DNA of 64,000 nucleotides from Escherichia coli (lineage in GTDB: Bacteria; Pseudomonadota; Gammaproteobacteria; Enterobacterales; Enterobacteriaceae), in the NCBI RefSeq assembly GCF_003334405.1, contig NZ_QOWM01000001.1, one strand, 5' to 3'. The first letter of the stretch is position 1. Every line of letters begins with the position of its first letter. A program made the translations under genes and the position numbers. Below the pieces are notes generated by a model. The model was not told where the DNA came from. It worked only from the letters and a program-made list of their open reading frames with translations, and did not search any database. This document shows, piece after piece, positions 42,607-43,301 of the stretch.

Positions 42607-42683
42607 GTATGCCGTACCTGTTTTTGGAATTCTTTCCGCAATAGTTTCATGCAGACTACCTGTAGTACGGGAAGCTGCTTAGA

Positions 42684-42730
42684 ACACTATATATAGGGGG
42701 TATGTTTGGGATTCACTGCAAGATAGTGTG
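42684..42730 (-). promoter_or_regulatory. nrdAB promoter-proximal region with two candidate NrdR boxes (42684-42699, 42713-42730)
   Basis: ACACTATATATAGGGG and CACTGCAAGATAGTGTG, about 30 bp apart, in the nrdA 5' leader. Confidence 0.45.
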
Positions 42731-42759
42731 AAAATGACCCTCTTGCAAGTGCATAACTT

Positions 42760-42768
42760 TGTGGATAA
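42760..42768 (-). promoter_or_regulatory. DnaA box (TTATCCACA) upstream of a candidate nrdA -35 (TTGCAA at 42743-42748)
   Basis: perfect 9-mer consensus on the nrdA strand. Confidence 0.55.
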
Positions 42769-43301
42769 CTCAGGAAGGAAAAAGTGGCTTTCGCGCACCT
42801 TAGGTCAGACAAGGTGTCCGGGAAAGTCAATGGGAAGAGAAAAATTTGTTAAAAATAACTGTTCGGCGATTTCTTGAACGGCATAATAGGTTAGATAAAT
42901 TGATATAGATGGTTTATTAATCTTTTTGCTAATGATTGCAAAAATTGATCTAAGCACGAGTCATCACATAATCTGATGTATCAGTTGTGGTCAATATATA
43001 AGCGAATGTAAGAGATTGTTGATGGCGAAATGGTTGTTTTCTATTCGGTTATTGTTAAATGCTAAGCCATTTTGTTAATTTACCTTATATTATAAGAAAA
43101 TTATTCATGACTTTAATTTAGTTTAAATATAACTGATATCCCTGAAGGTTATTAACTTGAATTATGACGCACTGATATTATTCATCAAATAATAACAAAA
43201 TAGCCATTGCACCGGGTTGAACAATTTACAAAAGAAAGATATTCCATATCGTATAATGCGATTAAATACGCCGTCTTATAGAAAATGATGGTTAGATTAA
43301 T

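Follow-up and report, generated by a model that had tools for sequence, protein, structure and literature searches.

The nrdA and yfaL genes of Escherichia coli are transcribed away from each other across an AT-rich spacer, and this locus raises the question of what the spacer contains and which of the two genes each part of it serves. We examined it in a window of 64,000 nucleotides (the whole stretch of DNA that was analysed, from contig NZ_QOWM01000001.1 of assembly GCF_003334405.1), which is 99.8–99.9% identical to K-12/B-type E. coli genomes, and the gene names nrdA, ypaB and yfaL were taken from the RefSeq annotation of these genomes. Using the ORF coordinates of the window, the spacer runs from 42607 to 43301 and is exactly 695 bp in length, in agreement with an initial annotation of the sequence that had marked a divergent region of this size between nrdA and yfaL.

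Our reading, which we hold with considerable confidence, is that the spacer is the junction of two unrelated regulatory modules, one formed of nrdAB control DNA and the other of AT-rich DNA linked to yfaL. The first, from 42607 to ~42880 and read on the minus strand, is the classical nrdAB control region. Its weak sigma-70 promoter starts transcription at 42713, and beyond the tandem DnaA boxes it carries, in addition to HusR sites and a short A/T tract, a GC-rich inverted repeat and a candidate Fis site. The second, from 42881 to 43301, would belong to yfaL and is likely to have arrived with an ~4.2-kb insertion that is found only in Escherichia. All elements on the nrdA side are already published, some since 1986, and this is among the better characterised E. 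coli promoters; likewise, the AT-rich side is already catalogued as an H-NS-bound promoter island. What is added here is the boundary at ~42880, a comparative case against ypaB, and the idea of an insertion-derived H-NS control of nrdAB. Coordinates of all features are collected in Table 1.

Table 1. Features of the nrdA–yfaL spacer and its flanking genes, in window coordinates.
Feature	Position	Strand	Basis or remark
nrdA	40321–42606	−	761-aa ORF
nrdA 5′ leader, 107 nt; TSS is the A at 42713	42607–42713	−	TSS table of Kim et al. 2012
NrdR box 2, GTACTACAGGTAGTCT	42653–42668	−	oligonucleotides of PMC12176259 match the window sequence
NrdR box 1, CCCCTATATATAGTGT	42684–42699	−	two mismatches from ACACWATATATWGTGT
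NrdR 'box 0' of earlier proposals, which overlaps the −10 hexamer	42714–42729	−	weak or non-functional
nrdA sigma-70 promoter: −35 TTGCAA (42743–42748), 17-bp spacer, −10 TATCTT (42720–42725)	42720–42748	−	placed relative to the mapped TSS
ypaB (b4605), annotated small ORF of 47 aa, antisense across the nrdA promoter	42734–42877	+	RefSeq and MG1655 annotation
Tandem DnaA boxes: TTATGCACT (42748–42756) and perfect TTATCCACA (42760–42768)	42748–42768	−	motif scan
HusR (YnfL) boxes: CACTTTTTCCTTCCTG (42771–42786, minus strand) and CAGACAAGGTGTCCGG (42806–42821)	42771–42821		exact matches to Table 1 of PMC12844172
Candidate '45-bp inverted repeat'	42784–42828		imperfect GC-rich repeat read by eye, upstream of the DnaA boxes
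Candidate Fis site, GTTCAAGAAATCGCC, where the conserved nrdA module ends	42865–42879	nrdA strand	centre at about −156 to −159 relative to the TSS
AT-rich yfaL upstream module, H-NS-bound 'promoter island'	42881–43301		GC content, promoter-like sites, published occupancy
Predicted yfaL-ward sigma-70 promoter, TTGATC-16-CATAAT, ~323 nt upstream of the ATG	42945–42972	+	consensus scan
Pair of ChIP-exo peaks (GadX and/or GadE) spanning the yfaL start codon	43286–43347		v2 2342146–2342207, from the supplementary table of PMC4918353
yfaL/ehaC, AIDA-I family autotransporter adhesin gene	43302–47054	+	1250 aa; NCBIfam equivalog NF007285 (2812 bits) and RefSeq annotation

The conservation boundary within the spacer

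When four further Escherichia lineages (E. albertii, E. whittamii, Escherichia sp. E1V33 and a divergent 'E. coli') were aligned to the window, conservation broke off sharply just past position 42880. Identity to these four lineages was 94.5–96.3% across 42717–42880 but only 44–48% across 42881–43301, where the sequences are unalignable, and 40–49% across the first 200 bp of yfaL, a gene whose evolution is mosaic and hypervariable. In the B2-type E. coli allele, identity was 96.3% on the nrdA side versus 85.7% on the AT-rich side.

We also compared the locus with three genomes from outside Escherichia (Salmonella enterica, Enterobacter hormaechei and a third, unclassified enterobacterium), which were obtained through the NrdA 90% cluster and exact-protein look-ups; a contig scan using a degenerate pattern for the nrdA N-terminal coding sequence was too narrow, and returned four Escherichia loci only. 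In all three genomes ubiG lies directly upstream of nrdA and in the same orientation, across a spacer of 345–355 bp with ~40% GC, and neither yfaL nor the AT-rich module is present between ubiG and nrdA. Starting at the nrdA ATG, these genomes can be matched with E. coli as far as the GAAGAAATC sequence at ~42870–42880, where homology ends. The position of this boundary, together with the absence of the DNA beyond it from the other genera, indicates that yfaL and its 421-bp tract form an Escherichia-specific insertion of ~4.2 kb, which separates ubiG from the nrdA control region and has its nrdA-side junction at ~42880. The published nrdA elements (NrdR boxes, TSS, DnaA boxes and HusR boxes) all lie inside 42607–42880, and the boundary should be useful in the design of reporter fusions to either nrdA or yfaL.

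Within E. coli the AT-rich tract was present once in every one of the 5,426 complete genomes searched, with no feature annotated in it in the records listed among these, and this indicates an old acquisition which could have gained host functions since. The origin of the tract is nonetheless restricted to one lineage, as is expected of xenogeneic DNA. A search of a plasmid collection with the tract gave six records, four of them multi-megabase and chromosome-sized and the other two 148–365 kb in length. A repeat search of the region returned only short AT-rich matches at chance level, with no transposon ends or att-like repeats.

Elements of the nrdA control region

The nrdA TSS has been mapped to MG1655 v2 position 2342780, with the ATG at 2342887, and it is the single nrdA TSS in that data set (Kim et al. 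2012, PMC3415461). The 50-mer given upstream of it matches the window and transfers the start to 42713. Folding of the resulting leader RNA is not unusual when compared with shuffled sequences (z = 0.09). The promoter placed relative to this start matches the sigma-70 consensus at eight of the twelve positions, which is under the threshold of our promoter scan, and such weakness fits the known activator dependence of nrdA. The leader also contains a minus-strand ORF of 15 codons (42650 to 42603) with a stop that overlaps the nrdA ATG, but we rejected it as an upstream ORF: its start is lost in O157 and its frame is shifted in B2 strains.

NrdR box 1 is the sole site in the 64-kb window with three or fewer mismatches to ACACWATATATWGTGT, although 0.66 such sites are expected there by chance. 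It is invariant in Escherichia and conserved in Salmonella and Enterobacter. Box 2 is degenerate, with a central AG, and the linker between it and box 1 is exactly 15 bp, so that the pair has the layout of an NrdR operator, in which two 16-bp boxes (acaCwAtATaTwGtgt) are found 15–16 bp apart at the promoter of an RNR operon. A probe carrying boxes 1 and 2 is bound by NrdR with a KD of 96–113 nM, as measured using microscale thermophoresis, and one carrying boxes 0 and 1 with a KD of >6000 nM (Rozman Grinberg et al. 2025, PMC12176259).

On the other side of the core promoter, tgtggataa at 42760–42768 on the plus strand reads as TTATCCACA on the nrdA strand, and the neighbouring TTATGCACT is an 8/9 match, with one mismatch, which abuts the −35 hexamer; the site thus consists of 9-mers of the TTATNCACA R-box type adjoining the core promoter. 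Both boxes are invariant in all Escherichia sequences compared, and in copies carried by phages P1 and P7. The TTATNCACA pattern occurs twice in the 64-kb window against an expectation of 1.95, which is not above chance, and for both DnaA and NrdR it is not the counts that give the motifs significance but placement at the nrdA promoter, invariance in Escherichia and published binding. DnaA-ATP and DnaA-ADP are reported to modulate nrdAB via these DnaA boxes (review, PMC8203912), and DnaA at the tandem boxes would either activate or repress nrdA, depending on the DnaA level and the nucleotide bound. On this side of the spacer the initial annotation has held up well. Its plausible −35/−10 pair is the published TTGCAA/TATCTT promoter with its start at 42713, its perfect DnaA box at 42760–42768 is confirmed on the nrdA strand, and its two NrdR-box-like palindromes in the leader are boxes 1 and 2, where published binding with a KD of ~100 nM shows that the call was right.

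Farther upstream lie the two HusR (YnfL) boxes, published in 2026 (PMC12844172). A 45-bp inverted repeat upstream of the DnaA boxes is needed for cell-cycle control of nrd, according to PMC2500167, and judged by its sequence the imperfect GC-rich repeat at 42784–42828 is a candidate for this cell-cycle element; its fold z-score is −1.6. A short A/T tract follows at 42832–42860, still within the conserved nrdA module. Augustin and colleagues reportedly described, in 1994, a Fis site of nrd centred at −156, and we take GTTCAAGAAATCGCC at 42865–42879 to be a candidate for it. The GAAGAAATC core of this candidate is conserved in Salmonella and Enterobacter.

The AT-rich tract, H-NS and yfaL

Beyond the boundary the composition of the DNA is very different. 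The GC content of 42881–43301 is 28.3% versus 51.1% for the whole window, and no other 421-bp stretch of the 64 kb has a lower GC content; 0.02% of windows of that size are as low, and all of these overlap it. Along the locus, GC falls from ~52% in the flanking genes to 26–33% across 42800–43300. The density of TANNNT hexamers is 4.6-fold, and that of TpA steps 2.7-fold, the window average. A consensus scan detected nine promoter-like sites in the module, against 4.0 ± 1.7 in shuffled sequences, and five of these nine are directed towards nrdA. The high-affinity H-NS motif TCGATAAATT occurs at two sites (2.9 versus 1.2 per kb), a modest enrichment that is uninformative. High AT content and an excess of promoter-like sites are expected of H-NS-silenced xenogeneic DNA and promoter islands, and the locus is listed, as 'yfaL/ypaB 2342143_534', among 78 such islands of E. 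coli, which bind RNA polymerase, give little productive RNA and are associated with foreign genes (Panyukov and Ozoline, PMC3661553). Using MG1655 v2 coordinate anchors, this island maps to 42817–43350 of the window.

H-NS occupancy of the tract is likewise on record. The island carries the H-NS code 'A', which denotes binding in all of the ChIP studies compared (PMC3661553), and an RpoD genomic SELEX peak in the nrdA/yfaL spacer is flagged 'HNS' (Shimada et al., PMC3946193). The same SELEX table proposes TTGATC-16-CATAAT for yfaL, and both of its hexamers are conserved in five E. coli lineages. Neither the map of Kim et al. 2012 nor the GadEWX table contains a yfaL TSS (PMC3415461, PMC4918353). 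The GadX and/or GadE peaks at yfaL are listed with no change in expression and no TSS (Seo et al., PMC4918353), and the phenotypes ascribed to YfaL were obtained with an inserted constitutive promoter (PMC3764049).

These observations fit xenogeneic silencing of an acquired adhesin gene, since the DNA is restricted to one lineage, occupied by H-NS and silent. AT-rich DNA that is full of −10-like hexamers would bind RNA polymerase and would also be an ideal substrate for H-NS, and an H-NS filament on the module would keep both the tract and yfaL quiet under laboratory conditions. We infer that H-NS occupancy silences yfaL, based on the published occupancy and on the silence of the gene, and when derepressed yfaL may use TTGATC-16-CATAAT, which from its sequence is the candidate promoter. 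The initial annotation had called the DNA towards yfaL very AT-rich, as is borne out here, and had put its length at ~450 bp, a figure which falls between the 421 bp counted from the conservation boundary and the 471 bp counted from the drop in GC. It had also called the region typical of H-NS-silenced adhesin promoters; published ChIP data uphold the H-NS part of this, with binding in all data sets compared (PMC3661553, PMC3946193), while silencing itself is the step that we deduce.

Alternative readings and known systems

Two further kinds of gene could be sought in the spacer, and comparison between lineages speaks against both. The annotated small ORF ypaB, which had been missed by the initial annotation, is located in the nrdA module and outside the AT-rich part. 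That it is a genuine protein gene, divergent from nrdA, is in our view very doubtful. Annotations of ypaB exist for MG1655 and most RefSeq E. coli genomes, four of five E. coli lineages keep the ORF open, its 46-aa counterpart upfO in phage P1 is open and 65% identical, and a HusR-dependent RT-qPCR signal has been reported for 'ypaB' (PMC12844172). However, in B2-type E. coli the ATG start has become CTG, and RefSeq carries no ypaB annotation there, while codon 18 is an in-frame TGA in E. albertii, E. whittamii and Escherichia sp. E1V33, even though the DNA is ~95% identical. The 15 variable sites within the ORF are distributed 6:3:6 over the three codon positions, with no third-position bias, and its product matches no NCBIfam family. 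The sole TSS assigned to ypaB lies 640 nt away, inside nrdA, and is based on 4 reads (Kim et al. 2012, PMC3415461). CRISPRi guides in ypaB are deleterious in either orientation, and this has been attributed to the nrdA promoter, which ypaB contains; conservation of its DNA is likewise wholly accounted for by the overlapping nrdA cis elements. Taken together, this sequence comparison suggests that ypaB is probably not a real coding gene but a spurious annotation.

The AT-rich tract itself had been considered long enough to hold an unannotated small RNA or small ORF, and that it encodes either appears extremely unlikely. Promoter-like hexamer pairs are plentiful on both of its strands, several ORFs of 11–24 codons are present, some with weak Shine–Dalgarno-like motifs, promoter islands are reported to yield very short oligonucleotides (PMC3661553), and the RT-qPCR signal for neighbouring 'ypaB' (PMC12844172) could also be read in this way. 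Against this, there was no Rfam match in the spacer up to an E-value of 10, only a spurious snoRNA match within yfaL, and no intrinsic terminator was detected in the tract. Folding z-scores of 150-nt windows on both strands stayed between −1.65 and +1.6 relative to shuffled sequences. The only TSSs between ubiG and nrdA in the map of Kim et al. 2012 (PMC3415461), a single data set covering a few wild-type growth conditions, are those assigned to nrdA and ypaB, and none lies in the tract. Furthermore, the tract is unalignable in other Escherichia species, which means that nothing in it is conserved at the level of the genus. Of its ORFs of at least 12 aa, only two are intact in all five E. coli lineages compared: a 14-aa ORF with a TTG start, and a 50-aa ORF with a GTG start (42957 to 42805, minus strand) whose first half lies in non-conserved DNA. 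No ORF combines an ATG start with a strong Shine–Dalgarno sequence. The tract therefore shows neither the promoter–terminator pair, structure, conservation and TSS of a bacterial sRNA gene nor the intact reading frame of a small protein gene, its own ORFs being, with these two exceptions, broken among E. coli lineages and ypaB in relatives. The suggestion of a hidden gene thus found no support.

A different alternative, compatible with the two-module explanation, is that the tract is also part of nrdA control, either because H-NS spreads from it, or bridges, to the nrdA promoter or because promoters upstream read towards nrdA; we consider this unlikely. A 1994 paper by Sun and colleagues reportedly names an upstream AT-rich cis element of nrd in its title, and the title of a 2013 paper by Cendra is said to state that H-NS modulates the nrd genes. 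The first of these titles would favour a role for the tract, but the A/T tract at 42832–42860 in the conserved module suffices as an 'upstream AT-rich sequence'. In favour of the alternative, a review (PMC4009431) and PMC12176259 report H-NS as an nrdAB repressor, each with reference to Cendra 2013. As noted above, five of the nine promoter-like sites face nrdA, and the published island 2342143_534 extends to 42817, within the conserved module. However, all mapped nrdA elements lie at or inside 42880, only one nrdA TSS has been mapped (PMC3415461), and the tract is not co-conserved with the nrdA module in Escherichia and is absent from other genera that have a functional nrdAB.

If the tract does take part in nrdA control, then the yfaL insertion would have rewired nrdAB regulation in Escherichia. 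In its full form the idea is that insertion of the module ~170 bp upstream of the nrdA start put the essential nrdAB genes under H-NS control, and/or that the module supplies H-NS-masked upstream or antisense promoters which act on nrdA once silencing is relieved. We regard this as quite improbable, yet were it true, acquisition of a neighbouring adhesin gene would have brought H-NS control of ribonucleotide reductase with it as a by-product in this lineage, and such control would be missing in Salmonella and Enterobacter, which have ubiG next to nrdA.

With the spacer read as a junction of two unrelated modules, each side has close counterparts. The K-12 nrdAB promoter has been studied by the Fuchs, Torrents, Sjoberg/Logan, Beckwith/Gon and Shimada laboratories. 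In the nrdAB region of MG1655 (E. coli K-12) the layout of yfaL, ypaB and nrdA and the 695-bp spacer are identical to those of the window, and the published K-12 nrdAB oligonucleotide and box sequences are found in it verbatim; divergence between the window and K-12 is ~0.1–0.2%, with nothing substantive among the differences. Phages P1 and P7 carry an 'nrdA-like promoter', a copy of window positions ~42732–42859 with 82–95% identity, upstream of hot, which encodes a homologue of the theta subunit of DNA polymerase III. This copy spans the −35 hexamer, both DnaA boxes, the HusR/inverted-repeat region and the A/T tract but leaves out the nrdA −10 hexamer, the leader and the NrdR boxes, and as an nrdA-like promoter with a DnaA box it is already annotated in M95666 and NC_005856.

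On the AT-rich side, the dense promoter-like sites and H-NS occupancy of 42881–43301 are common to the class of promoter islands described by Shavkunov, Panyukov and Ozoline, and the promoter of ycgV, another autotransporter adhesin gene, is also among them (PMC3661553). The published island reaches ~64 bp into the conserved nrdA module and 49 bp into yfaL, and differs in this from the module defined here, whose boundary at 42880 was set by cross-species conservation and not by promoter score. H-NS is well known for the xenogeneic silencing of acquired AT-rich genes, with examples in bgl, the gad island and cryptic adhesin operons. In common with these systems, the locus has lineage-restricted AT-rich DNA beside an adhesin gene, bound by H-NS and silent in the laboratory, and a factor of the AraC or LuxR family (GadX/GadE) at the edge of the module. 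The module differs from them in being fixed throughout E. coli and not strain-specific.

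The nrdA promoter core and its phage counterparts

A copy of the nrdA promoter core, 82-95% identical, is carried by phages P1, P7 and SJ46 and related phage-plasmids, and among E. coli genomes 235 plasmid places hold such a copy. Besides the -35 hexamer and the two DnaA boxes, it takes in the HusR and inverted-repeat region as well as the A/T tract. Directly downstream of the phage promoter copy lies hot, which encodes a homologue of the DNA polymerase III theta subunit. This phage copy is already known: M95666 and NC_005856 carry annotations for both the "nrdA-like promoter" and its "dnaA box".

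Features in the window and at the comparison loci
Feature	Sequence	Coordinates	Strand
nrdA promoter core copied in phages	window	42732-42859	
Promoter-core copy, phage P1 (NC_005856)	L003	1501-1615	
Promoter-core copy, P1-like plasmid pPBS4-p1	L002	4001-4139	
ypaB (b4605), annotated gene	window	42734-42877	+
Upstream ORF in nrdA leader, 15 codons	window	42603-42650	-
IS1A element, strain 23CRST009	L005	1173-1940	
Sole further TTATNCACA match, as TTATTCACA	window	47957-47965	-

Small ORFs and variation in the nrdA leader

The annotated gene ypaB appears to be a spurious ORF: B2-type E. coli have lost its start codon, a premature stop interrupts it in three other Escherichia species, and no codon-position bias was seen among ypaB substitutions. 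Its overlap with nrdA cis elements accounts for its conservation. The P1 counterpart, upfO, encodes 46 aa with 65% identity. A weak antisense TSS (4 reads) within the nrdA coding region, at ~42094 (+), has been attributed to ypaB, giving a leader of 640 nt (Kim et al. 2012, PMC3415461).

Conservation in the nrdA module is lowest in the leader (77-96% identity). Here B2-type E. coli (e.g. strain GABEEC132) lack 13 bp, GGAATTCTTTCCG on the + strand (42626-42638), and at this position 9 bp are deleted in E. whittamii. The TGA stop of the 15-codon upstream ORF overlaps the nrdA ATG (ATGA); this candidate was rejected as not conserved, having no start in O157 and being frameshifted in B2 strains.

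The yfaL insertion and the ubiG side

In strain 23CRST009, an IS1A insertion lies 31-38 bp ahead of the yfaL start codon (window ~43264-43271), and the annotation of this strain gives yfaL as a pseudogene containing an internal stop. The opposite edge of the yfaL insertion is marked by the convergent ubiG/yfaL 3' spacer (47055-47181), which is filled with REP/BIME-type palindromes (GCCTGATGCGACGCTTGCCGCGTCTTATCAGGCCTAC ... GCCGGATAAGGCGTTTACGCCGCATCCGGCA). The further DnaA-box match precedes the published ubiG TSS by ~26-34 nt and overlaps the site where the -35 element would be expected. By chance, one or two TTATNCACA matches of this kind are expected.

DnaA boxes outside Escherichia

The ubiG-nrdA spacers of Salmonella, Enterobacter and a third genus (L015 3646-4000, L016 3652-4000 and L017 3656-4000) were set against window 42607-42880. 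At these three loci no DnaA boxes were found upstream of the -35 hexamer, and the core promoter hexamers are TTGTAC ... TAGAAT, unlike those of E. coli. The DnaA box arrangement likewise differs from that of Escherichia, with two perfect, convergent TTATCCACA boxes in the nrdA leader of all three genera, lying downstream of NrdR box 1 at the position that NrdR box 2 occupies in E. coli.
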